The notes under the pieces: model-generated | What the model saw: the letters and a program-made list of their open reading frames with translations, nothing else | Told to the model about the DNA's origin: nothing | Databases searched by the model: none | Made by a program: the position numbers and the translations under genes | Shown: in pieces, positions 17,803 through 57,208 of the stretch | Numbering within the stretch: the stretch's first letter is position 1 | Layout of the letters: every line of letters begins with the position of its first letter | Origin: an uncultured Bacilli bacterium | GTDB taxonomy: Bacteria > Bacillota_I > Bacilli_A > RF39 > UBA660 | Assembly: GCA_934091055.1 (NCBI GenBank) | Contig: CAKOKN010000001.1 | Span: 118,642 to 182,641 of the forward strand | DNA: 64,000 bases | Direction: 5' to 3'

Positions 17803-18480
17803 ATGAAGATAGATGTACTTACTTTATTTCCTAATATGTATGATAATTTTCTTTCAGAATCTATTATTAAAAGAGCTATAGAAGATGGTAAGGTAGAAGT
17901 TAATGTTCATAATATTAGAGATTATACTGTATATAAGAATAATCAAGTAGATGATTATCCTTATGGTGGTGGTTCTGGTATGGTACTTATGTGTGATCCT
18001 ATATTTAGAGCTATAGATGAGTTATATACTGAAGATTGTTTAGTTATTATGATGACACCTTCAGGTAAGGTATATAAGCAAAGTATTGCCACAGAAATAG
18101 CTTTAAAGAAACATATTATTATACTATGTGGTCATTATGAGGGATTTGATGAGAGAATCAAGTCTATTACTGATTTAGAGTTATCTATAGGAGATTATGT
18201 TCTTACAGGAGGAGAAATACCTTCGATGGTAGTTATGGACTCTGTGATTAGATTAGTAGATGGTGTAATTAGTAGTGGTTCATTAGAGTCAGAAAGCTTT
18301 AATAATAATTTACTTGATTATCCTAATTATACTAAACCATATGAATATAGAGGTATGAAAGTACCTGAAGTACTTATAAGTGGTCATCATAAGAATATAG
18401 ATGAATATAGGAAAAAAGAACAACTTAGATTAACTAAAGAGAATAGACCAGATCTATTAAAGGGGGAAGATGATGAGTAA
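17803..18480 (+). CDS. trmD: tRNA (guanine37-N1)-methyltransferase TrmD
   Basis: N-terminal MKIDVLTLFPNMY and SPOUT knot motifs (GGEIPSMVVMDS). Confidence 0.9.
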   Translation: MKIDVLTLFPNMYDNFLSESIIKRAIEDGKVEVNVHNIRDYTVYKNNQVDDYPYGGGSGMVLMCDPIFRAIDELYTEDCLVIMMTPSGKVYKQSIATEIALKKHIIILCGHYEGFDERIKSITDLELSIGDYVLTGGEIPSMVVMDSVIRLVDGVISSGSLESESFNNNLLDYPNYTKPYEYRGMKVPEVLISGHHKNIDEYRKKEQLRLTKENRPDLLKGEDDE

Positions 18481-18952
18481 TTACTTTGTTAGCAAAGACA
18501 GTAAAACGGGTGAAATTGTTTATTTAGAATATGATAAAAAAGGATATAAGGTAAAACCTAAGACTACTAAAAAAGACGCTATAGAAGTAAATAAAATAGT
18601 ATTTGTGTCTCCTGAACTTACTAAGAAATTATTAAAGAAGAAGATTGATCATAAGATATCTAAGTTATTATTAGAACTTAATACTATAGATGATGGTGAT
18701 GATGGAGATCCTTCTAGAGTAAGAAATATGCTTGTAGAGGCAGAAAGATTAAAACTTATGATAATTAATACTTACCGTAAGTATTTAGGTAATAGTTATA
18801 CTACGCTTACTTTAAAGAAGATGGAGATTATTATTGATGGCTTTAGAAAGAAACTATATACTATTAATACAAAGAAACAACAAGAATTACTTATTAGAAT
18901 GATGGAATTAGAAGCTATGGAAGCTAGTGAAAAGAAAGGAAAAGGAAGATAA
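18470..18952 (+). CDS. Hypothetical protein (160 aa), Lys-rich
   Basis: AGGGGGAAG RBS; start overlaps the trmD stop; occupies the position where rplS usually follows trmD. Confidence 0.5.
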   Translation: MMSNYFVSKDSKTGEIVYLEYDKKGYKVKPKTTKKDAIEVNKIVFVSPELTKKLLKKKIDHKISKLLLELNTIDDGDDGDPSRVRNMLVEAERLKLMIINTYRKYLGNSYTTLTLKKMEIIIDGFRKKLYTINTKKQQELLIRMMELEAMEASEKKGKGR

Positions 18953-18971
18953 TCTATTTTGGGGGTATTTA

Positions 18972-19658
18972 ATGAGATTATATAATGATAAGAGAGAACG
19001 GATTATTTATAATAGTGAGAATAGAATAGGGGAAGGCTACTATGGGTATGTATATTTACTTTCTTCTTCTTTATGTATTAAAGTATTTAAAAAAAGAAAA
19101 CAAGATTATGATAAAGAGACTTTTACTTTGATTAGAGATTTGCATCTTAAGAATTTTTATAATATTGAGTCTCTTTTATATACTTCAAGTGGTAATTTTG
19201 GTGGGTATACTATGGAGTATTGTGAAAAGGATGATATTAATATTCTTACGATGCCTAGTGATTATACTTTATATAATTTATTTAATATATATTCTTCGAT
19301 TGAAGTATTATCTAAACTTGGTATATTTGTAGAGGACTTACATACTGGTAATGTTGTACTTAATTCTAAGGATATTACGGTTATTGATACTGATTTGTAT
19401 CATAAGGTGGATGATGAAAAGTTAGCACTTCATAATAATTTTTTAGTTGAGGGTTTATTTAGAGATTTATATTTAGAAGCTTTAAATAGATATTGTATAG
19501 AAAGTAATGGGAACACTAATAATATTAATAAAGAATATAATTTATATAGAGTAGATGATTTATTTCTTTATAATCGTAATGATGGCTTTAATAAGACTAT
19601 TAAGAGGCTCTGCAAGTATAAGTATCCTATTGATTATATTAGAAAAAGAGGAAAGTGA
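18972..19658 (+). CDS. Small phosphotransferase-fold protein (APH/choline-kinase/CotS-like); start at MRLYND
   Basis: Gly-rich loop IGEGYYGYVY, Lys in IKVFKK, Brenner motif EDLHTGNVVL, downstream IDTDL; GGGGGT RBS before 18972. Confidence 0.55.
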   Translation: MRLYNDKRERIIYNSENRIGEGYYGYVYLLSSSLCIKVFKKRKQDYDKETFTLIRDLHLKNFYNIESLLYTSSGNFGGYTMEYCEKDDINILTMPSDYTLYNLFNIYSSIEVLSKLGIFVEDLHTGNVVLNSKDITVIDTDLYHKVDDEKLALHNNFLVEGLFRDLYLEALNRYCIESNGNTNNINKEYNLYRVDDLFLYNRNDGFNKTIKRLCKYKYPIDYIRKRGK

Positions 19659-19687: not shown

Positions 19688-20671
19688 TTATCTATGTAAT
19701 CCAACAGTATTTTTTAATAACATATATTTTTCTTTAGCTATTTTACTTGTTTTATCTCTTCCTTCATCTAAGATTGTATCTAATTCACTACTATTTAGTA
19801 TTTGATAATATTTTTCTTGAATAGGGAGTAGGGTATCTGCAATTATTTTAGCTAAGTCTTTTTTAAATGTACCATAGTTACTATCTTTATATTTTTCTTC
19901 TACTTCTTCAATAGTTAGGTCTGTAAGTGATGTATATATGTTTATTAAGTTACTTATACCTTTCTTTGTTTCTGGATTATATTTTATTTCCATTTCTGAG
20001 TCTGTAGTTGCAGACATTATTTTTTTAGTTATAGCTTTTTCATCATCAAGTAAATATATTATACCCTTTGGATTATCTCCGGATTTACTCATCTTTTTAG
20101 TAGGGTCTACTAGATCCATTATTTTAGCTCCATCTTCAGGTATTAATGGTTCTGGTAGTTTAAATACTTCTTTATGGTATTTATTATTTACTCTTCCTGC
20201 TATATTTCTTGCTAGTTCAACGTGTTGTTTTTGGTCTCCTCCTACAGGAATATAATCTGGGTCATATAGTAAGATATCACTAGCCATAAGTATAGGGTAG
20301 GTAAGTAGTCCTGCGGAGAAGTTTTTATGTTTTCTACTCTTATCTTTGAACTGAGTCATTCTACCTAATTCTCCATATGGAGTAAGGCACTCTAATATCC
20401 AAGAAGCATTAGCGTGATATAAATTTTCTGATTGAATAAAAATGGTATTCTTTTTAGGATCTACGCCACAAGCTAGATAAAGTGCAATTAGGCTTTTTAT
20501 ATTTTTTGAAAGTACTTCAGGATCTTGAGGTACGGTAATAGCGTGCATATCTGCGACAAAGATAAAAGATTCGTATTCTTCTTGAAACTTTACCATTTGT
20601 TTGATTGCTCCAATATAGTTACCTAAAGTTATACTGCCACTTGGTTGTAATCCTGTTAATATTCTTTTCAT
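19688..20671 (-). CDS. trpS: Tryptophan--tRNA ligase
   Basis: Class I motifs (TGLQPSG...HLGNY-like ITLGNYIG; KMSKS). Confidence 0.9.
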   Translation of the reverse strand: MKRILTGLQPSGSITLGNYIGAIKQMVKFQEEYESFIFVADMHAITVPQDPEVLSKNIKSLIALYLACGVDPKKNTIFIQSENLYHANASWILECLTPYGELGRMTQFKDKSRKHKNFSAGLLTYPILMASDILLYDPDYIPVGGDQKQHVELARNIAGRVNNKYHKEVFKLPEPLIPEDGAKIMDLVDPTKKMSKSGDNPKGIIYLLDDEKAITKKIMSATTDSEMEIKYNPETKKGISNLINIYTSLTDLTIEEVEEKYKDSNYGTFKKDLAKIIADTLLPIQEKYYQILNSSELDTILDEGRDKTSKIAKEKYMLLKNTVGLHR

Positions 20672-20698: not shown

Positions 20699-20727
20699 AT
20701 TATACTACAATTAGTGGTTATAATCAA
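20699..20727 (-). promoter_or_regulatory. trpS sigma-A promoter (-35 TTGATT, 17 nt, -10 TATAAT on minus strand)
   Basis: Reverse complement reads TTGATT-ataaccactaattgtag-TATAAT about 25 nt upstream of the AAGGAAG RBS. The leader is too short for a T-box. Confidence 0.5.
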
Positions 20728-20750
20728 TAATATTTTTTTGATAATTTATA

Positions 20751-21233
20751 TTATTCTTTTGGCGATTTATCTAGTTCCTTTAATAATATATTTTTAATAT
20801 AATCTATGTCTGTAAAAAATAGATTTAGACCATTAGATTTTAAAGATAATATATACTTAAAATCGTTTATAATTATTTTTTCAACTGCTGATGACACTTT
20901 TATAAATTTACCATCAATTGTATGTTTACTTTGAATATATTTTTCTAATGTTGGAAATGCATTTTGGATTAAAATAGCTTGCTCTTTTCCGGCTATTTTT
21001 TTAATTAATATTGTTTTGCAAGTTCCATATTTCTTTTTCTTTTTTTCAATAATAATTTTATATTTTTCTATTTTAGTACTTAGTGGAATAAACCATAGCA
21101 TATCTTGATCTTTTATCGCTAAATAAGAAGGTCTAGAGTGACCGTTCTCGTGATTTATCATCAACCCTTTATTATTAATTTTATCGAAAAATTCATCTTT
21201 GATATGATATAAATATCCTGTCTGTGCTTCCAT
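20751..21233 (-). CDS. toxN: Type III toxin-antitoxin toxin, ToxN/AbiQ-family endoribonuclease
   Basis: 160 aa. N-terminal YLYHIKDEFFDK and MLWFIPLSTKIEKY resemble the YxxHVKDEFF / FVPLSSKxEKY signatures I recall for ToxN/AbiQ. AGGAG RBS 7 nt before the ATG. Preceded by terminator plus tandem repeats as in toxIN loci. Confidence 0.75.
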   Translation of the reverse strand: MEAQTGYLYHIKDEFFDKINNKGLMINHENGHSRPSYLAIKDQDMLWFIPLSTKIEKYKIIIEKKKKKYGTCKTILIKKIAGKEQAILIQNAFPTLEKYIQSKHTIDGKFIKVSSAVEKIIINDFKYILSLKSNGLNLFFTDIDYIKNILLKELDKSPKE

Positions 21234-21272
21234 CTGATCAACTCCTGTAGATTTTTTTGCTTAAAATAAATG

Positions 21273-21300
21273 AAAACTCTATTATAACTAACAGAGTTTT
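21273..21300 (-). terminator. Intrinsic terminator between antitoxin repeats and toxN
   Basis: Minus-strand reads AAAACTCT-gttagttataat-AGAGTTTT followed by CATTTATTTT. Position is the same as the toxI/toxN attenuating terminator. Confidence 0.6.
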
Positions 21301-21302
21301 CG

Positions 21303-21410
21303 AACATTTACAACCGAGATCATTTATTACTCGCACCACTCGGAAGCGATTAACATTTCACGACTAGGATCATTTATTACTCGCACCACCTAGAAGCGAT
21401 TAACATTTAT
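21303..21410 (-). ncRNA. toxI: Type III antitoxin RNA (ToxI-like): 2.3 tandem direct repeats of 50 nt
   Basis: Unit gatcatttattactcgcaccacNNNgaagcgattaacatttcacgactag at 21318-21367, repeated at 21368-21410 (2-3 substitutions), plus a partial unit at 21303-21317. Lies between a promoter and the terminator/toxN. Confidence 0.7.
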
Positions 21411-21442
21411 ATTATTATTATACTTTCTCCAAATACAACAGT

Positions 21443-21472
21443 AATATACTATATTTTATAAAAAATGTCAAT
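21443..21472 (-). promoter_or_regulatory. Sigma-A promoter of the toxI-toxN transcript (-35 TTGACA 21467-21472, -10 TATATT 21443-21448)
   Basis: Reverse complement reads TTGACA-18 nt-TATATT immediately upstream of the repeat array. Confidence 0.5.
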
Positions 21473-21587: not shown

Positions 21588-22346
21588 ATGAATAATTATT
21601 CTTTTGCTTTTTTACTTACTATTTTAGCAGGATTATCAACAATGATTGGAACTGTGGTTATTTTTATAAAGAGGTATAATCATAATAAGATAGTATTATC
21701 TTCTTTAGCTTTTGCAGCAGGTGTTATGATATGTGTATCTATTACTGATCTAGTACCAGAAGCTTTGACGCTCTTAAGGGGGAGTGTTAGTGATAGTTCT
21801 TCAATAATATTATGTATTTTAGGCATTATACTAGGAGTAGTTATTTCTATGTTAATAGATTATTATTTACCTGATAAACCAATTAGTAATACACAAGATA
21901 AATCTTTATTTAAAGTAGGTATTATATCTATGATAGCTATTATATTACATAATATACCCGAAGGTATTGCAACTTTTGTGGCTACTAATAGCAGTGTATC
22001 TTTAGGTATTACTCTTGCTCTTGCTATAGCTATGCATAATATACCTGAAGGAATTAGTATATCAGTACCTTTATATTATTCTACTGGTAGTAAAAAAAGA
22101 GCAATAATGTATACTCTTATATCAGCATTATCAGAACCATTTGGAGCCTTACTTGCATACTTATTTTTAAAAGATATAATGAATGATATAATACTAGGAA
22201 TACTATTCTCTATAATAGCAGGTATAATGCTTCAAATATCTTTTTGTGAATTAATTCCTACTACTAAGAAATATAATAATAAAAAAACAGCTATAATATT
22301 CTTTATACTAGGAGTAATTTTTATGTTATTAAAGTTTATTATTTAA
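21588..22346 (+). CDS. zupT: ZIP family zinc transporter ZupT
   Basis: Duplicated HNIPEGIA / HNIPEGISI metal-binding motifs in a multi-TM protein. Confidence 0.85.
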   Translation: MNNYSFAFLLTILAGLSTMIGTVVIFIKRYNHNKIVLSSLAFAAGVMICVSITDLVPEALTLLRGSVSDSSSIILCILGIILGVVISMLIDYYLPDKPISNTQDKSLFKVGIISMIAIILHNIPEGIATFVATNSSVSLGITLALAIAMHNIPEGISISVPLYYSTGSKKRAIMYTLISALSEPFGALLAYLFLKDIMNDIILGILFSIIAGIMLQISFCELIPTTKKYNNKKTAIIFFILGVIFMLLKFII

Positions 22347-26237: not shown

Positions 26238-27020
26238 ATGAGTATTGTCGAAAAAATAAATCTAATTTTAAAAAAAGCAAATATTTCTAAAGTAAACTTA
26301 GCTAAATATCTTGGAGTATCTAGACAAATGGTTTACAATTATTTGGATGGTAATGACCTGTCAAAACTTCCTAATGAAAAGTGTCAATTATTATTTGAAT
26401 TATTAGATGTTAATTCTGAAGAAGAGATAATAAAAGTTCAACTTACTAATGAGTATCTTCAGAAGGTTGGAAGTAAAATTTTTGATTCAAAGAAGAGTAC
26501 TCCTAAAAAGGAAGAAATTATTGAATTAAATGGTTTAGGTAAAGAAGAAGCTGCTTTAATTAATGATATTGTTTTGGTACTTAAGAGTATGTTTACAGAA
26601 GGGAAGGGTAGGAGTAGTGATACTTTGGCTACTGTTCGTTACTTATATCAATTTATACAGAACTTATCTACCACTAAAGAATTGAAATATATATTAGGTT
26701 ATTTTTCAAAGAACTTTGGTTATACTGGTCCTAATGAGTTTGTGTTTGATGAAAATGGTCAATATGTTTTAGAGAGTATTATGTATTCAGCAATGACATT
26801 ATATAGCAATGGGGGAGCTTCTAGAACAAGACTTACAGAGTCTCATCATAGATGGGAAGATATGCTTGCTTCTAAAAAAGAAGAAAAATTAAGTCGTACA
26901 CAAGAATTAAATACGGCAAAGATACAGGCACTTCGTGAACTTGGTTATACTAAAATTGATGAGAAGAATGCTAGCGAAGTATTAAATAAAATAGCAGAGA
27001 TTATGTCTCAAAAATTTTAG
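26238..27020 (+). CDS. XRE-type HTH transcriptional regulator with uncharacterised ~190-aa C-terminal domain
   Basis: N-terminal HTH (ISKVNLAKYLGVSRQMVYNYLDG); AGGAGG RBS. Confidence 0.6.
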   Translation: MSIVEKINLILKKANISKVNLAKYLGVSRQMVYNYLDGNDLSKLPNEKCQLLFELLDVNSEEEIIKVQLTNEYLQKVGSKIFDSKKSTPKKEEIIELNGLGKEEAALINDIVLVLKSMFTEGKGRSSDTLATVRYLYQFIQNLSTTKELKYILGYFSKNFGYTGPNEFVFDENGQYVLESIMYSAMTLYSNGGASRTRLTESHHRWEDMLASKKEEKLSRTQELNTAKIQALRELGYTKIDEKNASEVLNKIAEIMSQKF

Positions 27021-27391
27021 TACAAGTCCCCTACTTTAATTTTTTGCAGTGTAGTAGAGGATAAAGTGTTAAATAAAACAATAATATAATTGATTATCTA
27101 TTAATTAAATGTTATTGTTGTGCTACTATAGAATTAATATAAATATAAATAATAAAGTAGACTTTAAATTAATTAAATTAAAATTTAAAATCTATTTTAA
27201 TTTTATTTATTAATTAATGTAATTATAGTTAAATAATTACTAATACTAATAATAAATAACATAGTTAGTTAAATAGTTAAAAATAGTTTGATTTTAAGCT
27301 TAACAACTAACTTACTTTTATTATAAAATGATAGTTCCTATAATTAATATTATGTTAACTTCTATAAAATAGAAGAAGAAGGAGTTTAAAA

Positions 27392-27490
27392 ATGTCATTA
27401 AAAGAATTAAGTACTAATATGTCGATTGAAATATTAAAACATCCCCTATTTTTGTTTTTATTTATTGTAGGAGTAATTGGTTTGGTATAA
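27392..27490 (+). CDS. Possible 32-aa hydrophobic peptide (MSLKELSTNMSIEILKHPLFLFLFIVGVIGLV)
   Basis: GAAGGAG RBS 7 nt before the ATG; not in the ORF track; very AT-rich context, so it may be chance. Confidence 0.2.
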   Translation: MSLKELSTNMSIEILKHPLFLFLFIVGVIGLV

Positions 27491-27613
27491 TTGTTAGTAT
27501 AATTAAAATTAAAAAATAAATTTAAAAAAATTTACAAATACTTCCTTAAGATATTATTTTAATTTTGTATATAAAATTTATTTTAGTAAATAATATAATT
27601 GGAGGTAATTAAA

Positions 27614-27784
27614 ATGAGTAAAAAAGATAATAAAAAAGACAAAACTAATAATAAGTTAGATAAGTCTAATTCTTTTGATTGTAATTGTCAAGAACACGAT
27701 TGTGACGATAGTTGTAACTGTGATTGTCATAAAGATAATAAAACTTCTTGCAAGAAACAAGACGATACAAAAGATATGTTATAA
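27614..27784 (+). CDS. Cys-rich small protein (56 aa, 7 Cys in CNC/DC/SCNCDC arrangement), start at MSKKDNKK
   Basis: GGAGG RBS 8 nt before ATG 27614 (the track's TTG start at 27599 is unlikely). Followed by a strong hairpin terminator at 27806-27833. Confidence 0.45.
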   Translation: MSKKDNKKDKTNNKLDKSNSFDCNCQEHDCDDSCNCDCHKDNKTSCKKQDDTKDML

Positions 27785-27874
27785 TTAGTATATAAGAGGA
27801 TAGGGTATTTTCCTATTCTCTTCTTTTAATACTTATATTAATAATTAAAAAGTAGGGTTTACTCCCCTACTCTT

Positions 27875-29245
27875 TTATACTTCTTCTTTTACTCTATTTA
27901 ATAGGCTATCAAATTCATTACTAATTTCTTGTAGTCTTTCTTCTGTTTTTGCTTCATATCTGGTTGTTATATTAGGAGTGGTATTTGATTTTCTTACTAA
28001 AGCAAAACCATCATCATATATTACTTTAATACCATCTATAGTTAAGTATTTATAATTTTTTTCTTTGCAGTACTCCTCTATTTTAGCCATTACGGCATCT
28101 TTTTTGTCGTCATCGACATGATTTTTTCCTTCTTGCTTATTATAATATACTGATATACCTTCAAGTAATTGACTTGTTTTTTTATTAGTGCGTGATAGTA
28201 TTTCTACTAGTCTTAAACCACCATATATGCCATCATCTGTACCTATAAATCTATCTCTAAAATATAAGTGTCCTGATAGTTCTCCACCAAAAGGATAGTT
28301 ATTTTCTACAGATATTAATTTTGTATAAGAGTTTCCTGTTCTTGTTTCTACTGGTTTTACGCCTAGTTTTATTAATTCTTCTTTTAGAGCGTTAGAGCAT
28401 TTTACGTCGTAGAAGCCAACTTTCTTATCTACTTTATCATAGATATCTCTCCATATAATTATCATATATTTATCTATGTCAATAAATTTACCTTGTTCAT
28501 CTACTACTCCTACTCTATCACCATCACCATCAAAAGCTATACCACAGTCTGCTTTTTCTTCGACTACTTTTGCTTTTAAAGCAGTTAGATTGTCTTCAAC
28601 TGATGGATCTGGGTGATGGTTTGGAAATGTTCCATCAGAGGTGTTAAACATTGGTATATATTCAATATTATCTGTATTTTTAAATATTTCGTTTGCGACA
28701 ATACTTGTGGTACCATTACCACAGTCATATACTACTTTTACTTTATTTTTACCTAGACTTATATGATCTTTTATCATTTTAATATAGTCTTCTTTTATAT
28801 CTACATTTGTTATTGTACCTTTTCCTTCGCTATATATACCATTTAATATGACATAGTATAATTCACTTACTTCACTTCCAAAACAATTGTGTATGCCGTT
28901 ATAACTCATTTTAAAGCCATTATATTCTTTTGGATTATGTGATGCTGTTATCATTATACCACAGTGGATATTTAATTTATCCCAAGCATAATAGTACATT
29001 GGTGTAGTAACTAATCCTAGTCTTACAACATTTACTCCTCCATCAGTTAATCCTTTTACTAAGTTTTCTTCAATTATAGAAGAAGATAATCTATTATCAT
29101 ATCCTACAATAGCAGTATCTTTCTTTTTACTAAGTAGTTTTGTAGCAAATGCTCTTCCTATATGATATGATACTTCTTCGTTTATATCTTCTTGCCATAT
29201 TCCTCTTATATCATACTCTCTAAACATTAATTTATTTAATTTCAT
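27875..29245 (-). CDS. Phosphoglucomutase/phosphomannomutase family protein
   Basis: Active-site TASHNP, metal-binding DGDGDR, sugar-binding GGELSGH. Confidence 0.85.
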   Translation of the reverse strand: MKLNKLMFREYDIRGIWQEDINEEVSYHIGRAFATKLLSKKKDTAIVGYDNRLSSSIIEENLVKGLTDGGVNVVRLGLVTTPMYYYAWDKLNIHCGIMITASHNPKEYNGFKMSYNGIHNCFGSEVSELYYVILNGIYSEGKGTITNVDIKEDYIKMIKDHISLGKNKVKVVYDCGNGTTSIVANEIFKNTDNIEYIPMFNTSDGTFPNHHPDPSVEDNLTALKAKVVEEKADCGIAFDGDGDRVGVVDEQGKFIDIDKYMIIIWRDIYDKVDKKVGFYDVKCSNALKEELIKLGVKPVETRTGNSYTKLISVENNYPFGGELSGHLYFRDRFIGTDDGIYGGLRLVEILSRTNKKTSQLLEGISVYYNKQEGKNHVDDDKKDAVMAKIEEYCKEKNYKYLTIDGIKVIYDDGFALVRKSNTTPNITTRYEAKTEERLQEISNEFDSLLNRVKEEV

Positions 29246-52479: not shown

Positions 52480-54846
52480 TTAATTATTTCTTAACTTAGC
52501 ATTATGTTTTTTTTCTACTTCATCAGTTATTTTAGTAAACACTTCTGTTACTTCTTCTAGAGTAAGAGTTTTATTTGGATCTTCAAAGTATAGAGAGAAA
52601 GCTAATGATTTATTATTATCTCCAAGTGAAGGATCTATATATAAATCAAATACTTCTATCTTAGTAAGTAATCTTCCACCAGACTTTTTGATAGTCTTAA
52701 TTACTTCTTCAGAAGTTATATTTTTATCTAATACGAAAGCCAAGTCTTTAGTTATGCCAGGGAATTTATTTATTTCCTTGTATTTCATTTTTGATGTTTT
52801 AATATCTTTTAATAGTGATAAGTTAACTTCTGCTACAAAGATATTATCTTTAGTAATAGTAGGATGTATTTTACCTATTATACCTACTTTTTTATTATCT
52901 ATATATATACTAGCAGCTACTCCAGGATGTAATTCTTTAGGTAAGTCTTCTTTCTTATAGTAGTACCTATTATTATAACCTAGATAATTTAATACTTTTT
53001 CTAATATTCCTTTTATTATATAATAGTTTACTTCTCTATTTGAACCTAGTTTATTATAATAAGTTCCACTCATTAGAAGAGTTAATTTTTCCTCTTCATA
53101 GTGTTCTTTATCCTTTACATAATAACTTTTTCCTATTTCAAAGAGATTTATATTACTATTATTATGTTTAGTATTGTAGTCATATACTGACAGTAGGCTT
53201 GGTATTAGACTATATCTTAGAGTACTTCTCTCTTCAGTCATTGGATCTTGAAGTTTTATACTATCAAATTCATCATTAGTATATTTATGTACTTCACTCT
53301 CTTTTATTAGGGAGTAAGTAAGAGTTTCTGATAGACCTAAAGTGCTAAGTAGATGTCTAATACTTCTATTTGTTTTATCTATCTTTCCTGTTTTAACTGG
53401 CAAGATCATTTCTCTGCCTTTTATGTTATCTATGCCATATATTCTTCCTACTTCTTCAATTAAATCTTCTTCGATTTCGATATCTATTCTTCTAGAAGGT
53501 ACGGTAACTAGTACTTTATCTTCTTTATCTTCAGTAGTAAAATCTAATTTTCTAAATATATCTAGGATAGTATCTTTACTTAACTCTATTCCTAATACTT
53601 TATTTATTTTATTATATGATATTTCTATTTTTTTATCTTTTATATCAATATTTTTATATTCTAGAGTACCTTCTACTATTTTAGCATCTGCATACTTTTC
53701 TAATAGATGTAAGCTTCTTTCAATAGCCATATATGTTCTTTTTGGATCTAGACCTTTTTCAAATCTATTTGAAGCTTCACTTCTAAGTACTTTTTTACTT
53801 GTCTTTCTAATTAGTACAGGATCAAAGATAGCACTTTCAATAACAATATTTTTAGTATCAGCCTCTACTTCAGTAGATAGTCCTCCCATAATACCAGCAA
53901 GGCCAATAGCACCAGTATTGTTATATATTACTATATCAGAAGTAGTTAGTGTTCTTTTTTGATTATCTAGTGTAATTAGTTCTTCATTAGAGGTTGCTAA
54001 TCGTACTCCTAGAAGGCTTCCTAATCTATCAGCATCATAATAATGAAGTGGCTGACCTGTTTCTAACATTACATAGTTAGAGATATCTACGACATTGTTT
54101 ATTGGTCTGATACCTGAGGCTATTAGTCTATTTTTAATAAAGTTTGGACTTTCTTTGATAGTTACATCTTTTACTTTTCTAGCTAGAAATAATGAACAGT
54201 AAGATGTATCTACGCTTAATTTTAATTCATCACTTATATTACCAGTACCCCTACTATGTGATAAATCTATATCTTTTACTTTTTTGTCATAGATAGCTCC
54301 TAATTCATAAGACATACCTAATATACTTAGTAGATCCCCTCTGTTGGATGTTAGTTCAAAGTCTATTACTTCATCATCTAATTCTAAATATTTTATTGGG
54401 TCTTCTCCTACTTTAGCAGTACTATCTAATTCACAAATACCATTAATGTCTTCGTCTTTTAGGAATTTATGATCTAGACCTAGTTCAGCAATAGAACATA
54501 ACATTCCATTAGATTCTACTCCTCTTATAACGCCTTTTTTAATTGTACCTCCTGGTAGTGTAGCTCCTGCTAGAGCAACAATTACTTTTAAGCCTTTTCT
54601 GACATTTGGTGCACCACATACTATTTGTAGTACTTCATTTCCTATATTTACCTTACATACGTGTAAATGATCAGAGTCTTGATGTATGTTGCATTCTAGT
54701 ACTTCTCCTATTACGAGGTTAGTGCAGTTTATTAACTTACCAGCACTATCATATTCATTACCAACACCAGTCATTTTTTCGGCTATTGTATTTATATCTT
54801 CTTCTAGATCTATGTAATCACTTACGAATTTTCTTGATAACTTCAT
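52480..54846 (-). CDS. pheT: Phenylalanine--tRNA ligase beta subunit
   Basis: 788 aa with tRNA-binding, B3/B4 and B5 domains. Confidence 0.9.
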   Translation of the reverse strand: MKLSRKFVSDYIDLEEDINTIAEKMTGVGNEYDSAGKLINCTNLVIGEVLECNIHQDSDHLHVCKVNIGNEVLQIVCGAPNVRKGLKVIVALAGATLPGGTIKKGVIRGVESNGMLCSIAELGLDHKFLKDEDINGICELDSTAKVGEDPIKYLELDDEVIDFELTSNRGDLLSILGMSYELGAIYDKKVKDIDLSHSRGTGNISDELKLSVDTSYCSLFLARKVKDVTIKESPNFIKNRLIASGIRPINNVVDISNYVMLETGQPLHYYDADRLGSLLGVRLATSNEELITLDNQKRTLTTSDIVIYNNTGAIGLAGIMGGLSTEVEADTKNIVIESAIFDPVLIRKTSKKVLRSEASNRFEKGLDPKRTYMAIERSLHLLEKYADAKIVEGTLEYKNIDIKDKKIEISYNKINKVLGIELSKDTILDIFRKLDFTTEDKEDKVLVTVPSRRIDIEIEEDLIEEVGRIYGIDNIKGREMILPVKTGKIDKTNRSIRHLLSTLGLSETLTYSLIKESEVHKYTNDEFDSIKLQDPMTEERSTLRYSLIPSLLSVYDYNTKHNNSNINLFEIGKSYYVKDKEHYEEEKLTLLMSGTYYNKLGSNREVNYYIIKGILEKVLNYLGYNNRYYYKKEDLPKELHPGVAASIYIDNKKVGIIGKIHPTITKDNIFVAEVNLSLLKDIKTSKMKYKEINKFPGITKDLAFVLDKNITSEEVIKTIKKSGGRLLTKIEVFDLYIDPSLGDNNKSLAFSLYFEDPNKTLTLEEVTEVFTKITDEVEKKHNAKLRNN

Positions 54847-55880
54847 TACTCTTCATCCTTTCTATCGAATTGTCTTAACATTCTGACATCATTAGTATAT
54901 AGATATCTGATATCTGGAATGTTATATTTAAACATTGCTAATCTATCTAAACCTGTACCGAAGGCAAAACCAGTATATTTTTCTGGATCATATCCACCCA
55001 TTCTAAGTACATTAGGATGAACCATACCTGCTCCTAATACTTCAATCCAACCAGTGTTTTTACATAAAGGACAACCTTTTCCACCACATTTAAAACAAGA
55101 TAAATCTACTTCAACACTTGGTTCAGTAAATGGGAAGTAACTTGGTCTAAATCTTACTTTAGTATTATCTCCTAGTATTCTTTTAGCAAATATTTCTAGT
55201 GTTCCTTTTAAATCTGCTAATGAGATATCTTTATCAATAACTAAACCTTCTACTTGACCGAATTGATGGGAATGAGTAGCATCATCGTCTCTTCGATAAA
55301 CTTTACCAGGACAAATTATTCTAATTGGTCCTTTTTCTGTATTTTCCTCCATAGTATGAGCTTGAGCACAAGATGTTTGAGTACGAAGTAAATACTCTGT
55401 ATCTATGTAGAAAGTATCTTGAGCATCTCTTGCGGGATGTCCATCTGGAACATTAAGTCTTTTGAAGCAATATTCATCTGTCTCTACTTCATTTCCTGGT
55501 ACTACATCATAGCCCATACTTACAAAGATGTCTTCTACTTCTTCAATTATTCTATTAAATGGATGAAGAGATCCTGTTATTATTTCTTCGCTAGGTAAAG
55601 TAATATCTATTGCTTCTTTTTCTAGTTTTTTATTTATTTCTTCAGTTTCTATTCTTGTTTTTACTTCTTCGAACAATGTATTAAAGTAAGTTCTAATTTC
55701 ATTTACTTTGATACCATATTCTTTTTTGTCTTCATTTGGTATTTCTTTGATTTTACTTTGAAGTAAAGTAATCACTCCTTCTTTACCTAAATATTTACTT
55801 TTAATATCTAAAAGTTCTTGATTTTTACTTAAACTTTTTAAATCGCCCTCTATTTGTTTTTTTATTTCTTCTGTATTCAT
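54846..55880 (-). CDS. pheS: Phenylalanine--tRNA ligase alpha subunit
   Basis: Class II core motifs (FRPSYFPFTEPS, GAGMVHP). Confidence 0.9.
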   Translation of the reverse strand: MNTEEIKKQIEGDLKSLSKNQELLDIKSKYLGKEGVITLLQSKIKEIPNEDKKEYGIKVNEIRTYFNTLFEEVKTRIETEEINKKLEKEAIDITLPSEEIITGSLHPFNRIIEEVEDIFVSMGYDVVPGNEVETDEYCFKRLNVPDGHPARDAQDTFYIDTEYLLRTQTSCAQAHTMEENTEKGPIRIICPGKVYRRDDDATHSHQFGQVEGLVIDKDISLADLKGTLEIFAKRILGDNTKVRFRPSYFPFTEPSVEVDLSCFKCGGKGCPLCKNTGWIEVLGAGMVHPNVLRMGGYDPEKYTGFAFGTGLDRLAMFKYNIPDIRYLYTNDVRMLRQFDRKDEE

Positions 55881-56184: not shown

Positions 56185-56390
56185 TCTTTTAAATAGAAAA
56201 AAGGTGATACCATAAAAGGACGAATTATTATCCGCGGTACCACCTTTCTTTATAACTAATGTTATACTTCTTAAAATCTATAACCTGATTAATGGTATAA
56301 AACTAAAGGGTGAATTCGTATTAAATATCTTATTAGGCTTCCACCATTCCTAACTCTCTATAAAGCATCTTTAATATTACTACTTCCTTA
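56185..56390 (-). ncRNA. T-box riboswitch leader (Phe specifier UUC) controlling the small ORF-pheS-pheT operon
   Basis: Minus strand has stem I with AGAGA and ...CGAATTCACCC (UUC then A), T-box sequence AAAGGTGGTACCGCGG (plus 56232-56248) and terminator GGTGGTACC...GGTATCACC followed by T6. Confidence 0.75.
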
Positions 56391-56398
56391 TCTTGGTT

Positions 56399-57208
56399 TT
56401 ATTTATTTCTTTGTTTAATACATTTTAATAATCTTTTTACTTCTTCTGGCTTATTTGTTAATATGTCTTTACCATAATATTCTGAACCAGCTTCTGTACT
56501 TATTCCGTATCTATTAGCATATGAGTTTACGCCCTCTATTAATAGTGTCTTTGGATTAGGTATACTGCTAGTTGTTTTCTTAAATATCTCATCGCTTCCA
56601 AACTTAATTGCGTAGTATGGTTCTACTTTAGTTATATTACTAATTATGCTACTTCTTGTTTGATCTAACATAATGCAACTTAGTTTTAGATCTCCTCCAA
56701 AAATTTCATTTAATAATTTATTGTTTCTATAGTTAAAACGAAATCTTGGTTCTTTTGGCAATTCTTTACTTAATATTTTTACTGTTTCATCTATTATAAA
56801 TGGAGTATCAATTTCTTGTTCTTCAAATAGGGCTAATCTATTTAGATTGTAGATTATACTACTTGATTCTTGCTTTAGTAGTTCAGTGCATAACTGTACA
56901 TCGTTTTGAGCAAACTCCGAGTATGCTATTTCTTCAGGATACATTCTACATATTGCGTGTGATATTTCTGGATCCTCTTTTAGGTAATTATAAGCAAACT
57001 TAAGTTTTCCTTTCATAGGTTTATTAGTTCCATCTATAGCTATTGATTCAATTGCTTTAGCTAAGATATACTTATAAATATTTGCTCCTTTATCTTGCAT
57101 TTTGTATAATTCTTCTGTTGTAGGCATAAATAATTCTTTGTAATTACTCTCACTTTTGGTAAAATCATAATTATTTTTTAATACATCATTTACTTCTTTT
57201 CTAGTCAT
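56399..57208 (-). CDS. Hypothetical protein (269 aa)
   Basis: Long ORF, no family assigned. Confidence 0.5.
   Translation of the reverse strand: MTRKEVNDVLKNNYDFTKSESNYKELFMPTTEELYKMQDKGANIYKYILAKAIESIAIDGTNKPMKGKLKFAYNYLKEDPEISHAICRMYPEEIAYSEFAQNDVQLCTELLKQESSSIIYNLNRLALFEEQEIDTPFIIDETVKILSKELPKEPRFRFNYRNNKLLNEIFGGDLKLSCIMLDQTRSSIISNITKVEPYYAIKFGSDEIFKKTTSSIPNPKTLLIEGVNSYANRYGISTEAGSEYYGKDILTNKPEEVKRLLKCIKQRNK

Follow-up and report, generated by a model that had tools for sequence, protein, structure and literature searches.

A probable CptIN-family type III toxin-antitoxin module with two non-identical pseudoknot units in an uncultured gut Bacilli genome

Type III toxin-antitoxin systems couple a protein toxin to an RNA antitoxin. 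In the ToxIN systems of P. atrosepticum and B. thuringiensis and in AbiQ/antiQ, repeats are followed by a terminator and by the gene for an RNase toxin, which both cuts its cognate RNA and is blocked by it; these antitoxins fold as pseudoknots, and the toxins have a distant Kid/MazF-like fold (PMC4627078). These are features that the locus described here shares, either as observed or as predicted. The repeats of ToxIN and AbiQ are 34-36 nt long and present in 2.9-5.5 copies, and their complex was published as a 3:3 triangle, unlike the 2:2 ring of CptIN. The terminator of ToxIN sets the excess of antitoxin over toxin message (PMC3401426), and abortive infection is proven for ToxIN, in contrast to CptIN (PMC3401426).

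Membership in CptIN is defined by toxin sequence similarity (Blower 2012). The closest described system is the CptIN locus of Eubacterium rectale (4RMO; Rao et al. 2015, PMC4627078), which resembles the present locus in having a promoter, about two tandem units, a terminator and a toxin gene. The active site of its toxin, CptN-Er, comprises a Ser-Ser/Thr-Arg triad together with Asp81, Ser85, and Tyr104 (PMC4627078). In its antitoxin, CptI-Er, the changes A29U and delta-U30 abolish antitoxicity, identifying A29 and U30 as essential (PMC4627078). Published CptIN loci act as toxin-antitoxin pairs and stabilise plasmids (PMC3401426, PMC4627078). A literature search found no CptIN-specific work after 2015 beyond reviews and a 2025 tenpIN survey.

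The window, the whole 64-kb stretch of DNA that was analysed, carries on its minus strand a promoter, a repeat array, a terminator, and a gene for a 160-aa protein, the four elements described in an earlier, sequence-only reading and found again at the same places. The features of the locus and its flanks are as follows.

19688-20671: trpS (TIGR00233, 358 bits)
20751-21233, minus strand: cptN open reading frame, 160 aa, ATG start, TAA stop; predicted endoribonuclease of the CptN family
21242-21246, minus strand: Shine-Dalgarno sequence AGGAG, 8 nt 5' of the ATG, read from the sequence
21262-21301, minus strand: intrinsic terminator, 13-bp stem, 4-nt loop, then AUUUAUUUUA
21303-21351: repeat unit 2 in plus-strand register, 49 nt
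21308-21356, minus strand: antitoxin unit 2, predicted processed RNA, 49 nt; S1 pairs 21349-21346 with 21334-21331
21343-21339 with 21318-21314, minus strand: S2 of unit 2, CCGAG/CUCGG; loop at 21330-21319
21352-21401: repeat unit 1 in plus-strand register, 50 nt, transcribed first
21357-21406, minus strand: antitoxin unit 1, predicted processed RNA, 50 nt; S1 UCGC/GCGA pairs 21399-21396 with 21384-21381
21393-21389 with 21368-21364, minus strand: S2 of unit 1, CUAGG/CCUAG
21380-21369, minus strand: A-rich loop of unit 1, GUAAUAAAUGAU
21402-21409, minus strand: junction remnant UAAAUGUU, a partial unit of 8 nt; predicted first cleavage site A^AUG between 21407 and 21406
21419-21437, minus strand: 5' leader hairpin UGUAUUU-GGAGA-AAGUAUA, 7 bp, weak (-2.7 kcal/mol in the window)
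21443-21448, minus strand: -10 hexamer TATATT, paired with TTGACA across a 17-nt spacer
21466-21471, minus strand: -35 hexamer TTGACA, 17-nt spacer to the -10; consensus at 11 of 12 positions
21588-22346, plus strand: zupT (NF003243, 257 bits)

With a probability of roughly 0.87, this locus is an intact CptIN-family type III toxin-antitoxin module that works by the mechanism set out below. It belongs to a known family and is not a new kind of system. The analysis yielded the family and fold of the toxin, the conservation of its catalytic-region residues, the array, a covarying pseudoknot, homology of the RNA to CptI, and a conserved promoter, leader hairpin and terminator. CptIN is preferred to ToxN/AbiQ because the toxin matches an NCBIfam equivalog, because it matches 4RMO in both sequence and fold, and because the RNA aligns with CptI.

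Evidence for the toxin family comes from both sequence and structure. The only NCBIfam match of the 160-aa protein is the equivalog NF047359.1 (type III toxin-antitoxin system CptIN family toxin), at 151.3 bits and E 1.6e-44 against a cut-off of 90 bits, and this match spans profile positions 1-150 of 150. A phmmer search of the PDB likewise has a single meaningful match, 4rmo_A (CptN of E. rectale; E 4.9e-17, residues 8-143). An AlphaFold2 model built from 43 homologues (pLDDT 85.4, pTM 0.81) agrees with the Kid-like CptN fold, a twisted beta-sheet core with flanking helices, and its best Foldseek match in the PDB is again 4rmo_A (TM 0.83/0.85, rmsd 2.3 A, 157 columns). The next matches are MazF, Kid-like, and CcdB chains with TM below 0.5. 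Identity to the E. rectale protein is only about 30-35%, in contrast to this likeness in family and fold (E 4.9e-17, TM 0.83).

The sequence-only reading had called the protein ToxN/AbiQ-like and the locus a relative of ToxIN. The size of the protein stands, and the family does not. When the protein was compared with ToxN, AbiQ, CptN and TenpN, as that reading had proposed, CptN alone matched by sequence. A ToxIN/AbiQ-family locus would have the same layout and the same class of fold, the Kid/MazF-like one, and ToxN-Bt (4ato_A) does appear in the Foldseek list, at rank 28 with TM 0.42. However, that value compares with 0.83 for CptN, no ToxN or AbiQ chain is found among the PDB sequence matches at E<=10, and the protein has no detectable sequence similarity to these toxins. 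A Pfam search of the toxin returned no ToxN-type family, its sole line being COBRA1 at 14.9 bits, which is below the cut-off and represents noise. The NCBIfam equivalog is that of CptIN, and the RNA aligns with CptI. The PDB sequence search, the equivalog, and Foldseek thus refute a ToxIN/AbiQ assignment at the family level, and this reading is almost certainly wrong. TenpIN (Photorhabdus; PMC12283969) has a different toxin family as well, and no TenpN-type family is found among the NCBIfam matches of the window protein. The locus annotation should read cptIN, a name that the NCBI family model already gives to the toxin.

Individual residues point to an intact enzyme of possibly altered preference. 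In the alignment, PLS51-S52-R53 of CptN-Er corresponds to PLS52-T53-K54 of the window protein. Residues R34-P35, K57-Y58, Q90, and F93-P94 vary little or not at all across the family, and S52-T53 is also conserved. The third residue of the triad, Arg in E. rectale and Lys (K54) in the window, varies across the family. Two residues that specify the base in CptN-Er are changed, Tyr104 to His (H104) and Ser85 to Gln (Q85), and His is the family majority at the Tyr104 column. As judged from these residues, the window protein is probably an intact RNase, with a base specificity that may differ from that of the E. rectale enzyme; because of the changes at Tyr104 and Ser85, both cut site and target specificity may differ.

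The order of elements is that of a complete type III locus, promoter, repeats, terminator, and toxin, as originally proposed. Tandem repeats upstream on the same strand with a Rho-independent terminator before the toxin gene are conserved in about 70 loci. The promoter claim (TTGACA / TATATT, 11/12 consensus) is upheld by relatives: 71 of 76 related loci have a promoter at a similar position, 34-43 nt upstream of the first S1, that fits the pattern TTGA[C/T]N, 16-18 nt, TANNNT, and TTGAC[A/T]-17-TATATT is the commonest form. The leader hairpin is more stable in relatives than in shuffled sequences (mean MFE -4.6 vs -0.9 kcal/mol, 71 loci), reaching -3 kcal/mol or lower in 50 of the 71. Its stem differs in sequence from locus to locus with pairing maintained, and it presumably stabilises the 5' end of the transcript. 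A factor-independent terminator between repeats and toxin gene had also been claimed, and is confirmed: the hairpin at 21301-21272 has 13 bp and precedes ATTTATTTTA. No other terminator-like site is found in 1.1 kb, where 0.2 would be expected, and an equivalent hairpin, GAAAACUYU...AGAGUUUUC, with a U-tract is present in the related loci inspected.

The array had been described as 2.3 near-identical repeats of 50 nt. An array is indeed present, in about 2.2 copies made up of two complete units and an 8-nt remnant, a copy number inside the 1.9-3.4 published for cptIN (PMC3401426). The units measure 50 and 49 nt and are not near-identical; the repeat search gives 84% ungapped identity at period 50. 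Units 1 and 2 are separated by three compensatory pair swaps in S2, one substitution, and one indel. Exactly two copies of the conserved core CGC-N7-TGGTGCG-N4-ATAAAT are present in the 64-kb window, where 0.07 would be expected, and the same two-unit array of about 50 nt lies upstream of about 70 homologous genes from gut metagenome-assembled genomes (MAGs), at nearly all loci examined; for both reasons the array is not a product of chance. Standard tools would overlook this RNA antitoxin. Tandem Repeats Finder does not report the array at a permissive score of >=30, and an Rfam search of the repeats, at the gathering threshold and at E<=10, found no family, with the RNA-OUT line corresponding to the terminator hairpin.

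A length of 50 nt had been called unusual and a possible mark of a distinct sub-family, a view that the published ranges and the relatives contradict. Repeats of type III systems measure 31-62 nt in toxIN, 39-57 nt in tenpIN, and 40-48 nt in cptIN (n=33) (Blower 2012, Table 2; PMC3401426), and tenpIN resembles the window in having repeats of about 50 nt (mean 50.9, range 39-57) in about two copies (PMC3401426). Units of 49/50 nt exceed by 1-2 nt the 2012 cptIN range, which comes from 33 loci and describes the family without defining it. Relatives form a continuous range of 44-51 nt with the window units near its upper end. Among 60 two-unit loci parsed in register, unit spacing is 50 nt in 48, 51 in 5, 48 in 4, and 49 in 3; loci on viral contigs and of the E. 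rectale type have units of 44, 45, 46, 47, 48, and 49 nt. A few loci, such as L003 and L049, have a single unit. The units of about 50 nt are therefore the top of a continuum, well inside the known type III range, and form no separate length class. The window CptI belongs to a sub-clade and not to a distinct sub-family of new architecture. CptI length thus varies continuously from 44 to 51 nt, and the type III toxin-antitoxin concept is unchanged by these results.

The fold of the unit was deduced from an alignment of 93 distinct units from homologous loci (alignment A1), a large body of natural variation in which covariation of the CptI pseudoknot can be read. The alignment supports an H-type pseudoknot with a 4-bp S1 (columns 12-15/29-32) and a 5-bp S2 (columns 18-22/45-49). 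Pairing over the 93 units is 98.0%, falling to 27-53% when the partners are slid by 1-3 columns. Six of the nine pairs, all five in S2 and one of the four in S1, show compensatory changes; the outer S1 pair, for example, is U-A in 63 units of A1 and C-G in 29. The observed covariation score is reached by no shuffle, and RNAalifold recovers S2 independently. Both window units keep all nine pairs and every invariant position.

Several other pairings were considered and rejected. A nested alternative taken from the minimum free energy fold of unit 1, in which the 5' arm of S1 would pair with the 3' tail, reaches only 62% pairing and lacks compensatory changes: where U12 becomes C, column 55 remains A, whereas column 32 changes to G. 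Extension of S1 (columns 10-11/33-34) or of S2 (17/50), judged by eye, gives pairing that is inconsistent across units. Folding a unit of about 50 nt had been suggested earlier as a check for a pseudoknot, and the pseudoknot is supported by covariation (98%, 93 units) and not by thermodynamic folding. Single-unit folds are no better than those of shuffled sequences (z = -1.4 and -0.8), and the crystallised E. rectale unit also folds like its shuffles (z = -0.65). Thermodynamic folds, whether of one unit or of the entire leader, are uninformative because the folding program cannot model pseudoknots. Covariation supports an H-type pseudoknot whose long A-rich loop may form an A-minor twist in three dimensions.

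Comparison with the crystallised RNA provides a second line of evidence. An E. rectale-type locus (L087) was recovered from a metagenome contig, with 2.1 copies of a 45-nt unit that are 100% identical, and its unit numbered according to Rao et al. reproduces G13, G22-24, A27-G35, and G44-A45. In an alignment of representatives of 45 to 51 nt that includes this Er-type unit (alignment A4), the window S1 coincides with S1 of the CptI-Er crystal structure (CCAC/GUGG vs CCGC/GCGG or UCGC/GCGA). Pairing of S1 is complete (100%) across these representatives, two of the pairs covary, and the window loop motif AUAAAU aligns with A29-U34 of the E. rectale RNA. On this alignment, the predicted antitoxin RNA of the window is a homologue of CptI, because its S1 lies on the crystallographic S1 and its AUAAAU on Er A29-U34. 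The two RNAs share the H-type topology, with S1 in the same alignment columns, the long A-rich loop with AUAAAU(G), and A-rich junctions between units. They differ in length, 45 nt in E. rectale and 50/49 nt in the window, and a hand annotation places the added length in the A-rich loop (12 vs 9 nt), in the linker between the 5' arm of S2 and the 3' arm of S1 (UGGU vs about UAU), and in the tails. The systems differ further in a gene of the RNA-ligase family, present upstream in E. rectale and absent at the window locus.

The A, A, U, and G of the unit junction are the same in all 93 units. The cut site would be A^AUG, which corresponds to A45^A1 of the E. rectale RNA by its spacing from S1; the predicted RNAs would therefore be 21406-21357 and 21356-21308. 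The predicted junction AA^AUG differs from GA^AAG in E. rectale.

These features bear on two readings in which the locus would not be a working toxin-antitoxin module. If the repeats acted only in cis on the downstream gene, as an attenuating or mRNA-stabilising leader and not as an antitoxin in trans, their place in the 5' untranslated region ahead of a terminator would be the expected one. However, the units fold as pseudoknots and not as terminator/antiterminator alternatives, the covarying stems lie within single units, the junction motifs are invariant on either side of every unit, and the units are homologous to a crystallised, CptN-bound RNA that rescues toxicity in trans (PMC4627078). 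A purely cis-acting role is highly improbable. It is also very unlikely that the locus is an inactive relic in which toxin or RNA has decayed, as might be argued from K54 for Arg and H104 for Tyr relative to CptN-Er, and from a leader hairpin weaker than in relatives. In contrast, the open reading frame is full-length with its family-invariant residues intact, both units retain all invariant positions and nine pairs, and promoter, Shine-Dalgarno sequence, and terminator are intact. Moreover, an identical protein (100%) is encoded on six independent metagenome contigs.

An intact CptIN module would operate as follows. A strong constitutive promoter of the sigma-70 type would direct transcription of a short hairpin leader and two pseudoknot units (cptI). 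The 13-bp terminator would stop most transcripts, leaving antitoxin RNA in excess, and read-through transcripts would carry cptN with a good Shine-Dalgarno sequence. CptN, a small predicted endoribonuclease with a Kid/MazF-like core, would cut the precursor at three invariant junctions, predicted as A^AUG. The released 50-nt and 49-nt RNAs would each bind across two toxin molecules and block their active sites, and the complex would probably be a closed ring of two proteins and two RNAs, as in E. rectale CptIN. Were transcription to stop or the RNA to be degraded, the labile RNA would be lost and free CptN would cleave cellular RNA, causing growth arrest. Processing, the exact cut site, stoichiometry, toxicity, neutralisation, and biological role are those that we infer by analogy with the described systems.

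In the clade of the window locus, the two units of an array differ from each other. Their S2 stems differ in 68 of 73 loci and their S1 stems in 34 of 73, always with compensation, and for 143 of 146 units the closest match among other loci is a unit that holds the same place in its array. The E. rectale units are 100% identical and those of the window 84%. A recent survey describes tenpIN repeats as non-identical and those of toxIN and cptIN, in contrast, as "nearly identical" (PMC12283969), and tenpIN resembles the window clade both in this respect and in its occasional single-repeat loci (PMC12283969). That cptIN arrays can hold two non-identical, positionally conserved units is thus a mildly novel point. 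The pattern suggests that the two units of an array in this clade have long been conserved apart from each other, like two pseudoknot genes and unlike homogenised repeats.

Two reasons for such divergence can be offered as speculation. Each 2:2 complex may contain one RNA of each kind, giving an asymmetric CptN-CptI ring, or divergence may have been selected against mispairing between units and deletion of repeats. Either, if true, would give type III antitoxins a new rule of assembly or design. The full proposal, in which the array consists of two pseudoknot genes that diverged long ago and are each tied to one position (a 50-nt type for unit 1 and a 49-nt type for unit 2) and whose difference is meaningful through an asymmetric ring or through selection against mispairing, is doubtful.

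The role of the module in its host is a separate question from its mechanism. The earlier description as a small defence island acting by abortive infection finds no support. Its flanking genes, trpS (TIGR00233, 358 bits) and zupT (NF003243, 257 bits), were correctly named, and the module stands alone between its neighbours. PADLOC reports 0 families at the locus, no defence gene is found among the neighbours (trpS, zupT, a weak kinase-like open reading frame, and unannotated ones), and published CptIN loci gave E. coli no resistance to six coliphages (PMC3401426). No CptIN locus is reported to have anti-phage activity (PMC3401426, PMC4627078).

The same toxin-antitoxin mechanism may serve a role other than phage defence, namely selfish addiction, genome stabilisation, or self-maintenance only, and the chances of this are somewhat short of even. 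Such a role would fit the empty PADLOC result, neighbours that are housekeeping or unannotated, and a genomic context that is identical on all six same-species contigs encoding the identical protein. On the other hand, the phage tests used coliphages in E. coli, which are distant from the native hosts, and the sister families ToxIN, TenpIN, and AbiQ abort infection. Context also differs between species, with zupT (zip) upstream in 7 of 80 loci and trpS downstream in 0 of 80, which is compatible with mobility. Furthermore, CptN relatives with 31-44% identity occur on 32 IMG/VR viral contigs.

Beyond its immediate context, the CptIN module of the window is an ordinary member of a large clade that occurs in uncultured gut Bacilli. 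Homologues of the toxin number 2,581 at E<=1e-3 in 90% clusters, and 930 representatives are found among 50% clusters. A scan of one genome per species gave 80 loci with 57-86% identity. By record titles, the only source of taxonomy for the relatives, most of these are MAGs of uncultured Bacilli or Tenericutes, and further titles include Erysipelotrichaceae, Clostridium sp. CAG:628, Candidatus Onthousia, and some Muribaculaceae, Clostridia, and Phocaeicola bins. The CptIN family is thus abundant in uncultured AT-rich gut Bacilli and present on viral contigs. The G+C content of the window, 25-30%, is in keeping with its relatives among gut Bacilli and Tenericutes.

Antitoxin organization varies among the relatives of the window's CptN toxin. 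Two loci from other genomes, L003 and L049, carry one antitoxin unit upstream of cptN, with the predicted cleavage motif at the unit junction present on either side. A single unit may therefore be enough; a single repeat of CptI-Er, the Eubacterium rectale RNA, has been shown by experiment to suffice (PMC4627078). Another locus, L027 (~590-847), encodes a CptN homologue with 64% identity and has no 50-nt repeats upstream of it. In their place, a non-repetitive, G+C-richer stretch of ~120 nt lies behind a consensus promoter, and the antitoxin could have been replaced or be a different one. The sole Rfam match in the scanned L027 upstream region is a weak RsmY-like hit (454-572, 22 bits) that lies further upstream than this stretch.

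A second kind of variation may affect transcription of the toxin. L031, L038, L042, L053 and similar loci have a spacer of ~140 nt between the terminator and cptN, and the promoter-like site that it holds, the second in these loci, suggests that transcription of the toxin need not be tied to that of the antitoxin in this sub-group. The window cptIN locus differs in lacking the spacer.

CptN relatives with 31-44% identity, accompanied by CptI-like repeats of 44-49 nt, are found on 32 viral or prophage contigs from IMG/VR (L089-L120), and ~15 near-identical ones among these loci come from one sample set (3300045988). In the E. rectale-type locus (L087/L088, 399-1328), an RNA-ligase-family gene (PF09414) on the same strand as cptN ends ~30 nt before the cptI array. 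An RNA ligase beside an RNase that leaves 2′,3′-cyclic phosphate ends may deserve a look.

On the trpS side of the window locus, a direct repeat of 21 nt (20720-20761; 2.0 copies, 80% match) covers the cptN stop codon and the beginning of the cptN-trpS spacer. A promoter-like site for trpS lies near it:

20727-20699, TTGATT-17-TATAAT

The gap between the two genes, only 79 nt, accounts for the lack of a T-box ahead of trpS.

Before 27,020, almost every open reading frame (ORF) of 150 aa or more lies on the plus strand; after 27,875, almost every one lies on the minus strand. At ~28 kb, GC skew turns from positive to negative. Together, this orientation flip and skew change suggest a replication terminus within the 850-bp intergenic gap at 27021-27874, which falls in a kilobase (27000-27999) of 20% G+C. 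The left arm contains just three large minus-strand ORFs, and since cptN and trpS are two of them, both are transcribed head-on relative to replication.

Elsewhere in the window, a T-box leader precedes pheS and pheT, which is an ordinary arrangement, and one ORF has weak, sub-threshold similarity to protein kinases:

56213-56403, minus strand, T-box leader (RF00230; 94.5 bits, gathering score 93)
54846-55880, pheS (TIGR00468, 359 bits)
52480-54846, pheT (TIGR00472, 791 bits)
18927-19658, plus strand, 243-aa ORF (Pkinase, 19.9 bits; Kinase-PolyVal, 20.2 bits)

The last part of an unannotated 160-aa ORF (18470-18952) overlaps with the kinase-like ORF, and the two are kept together across contigs of the same species.
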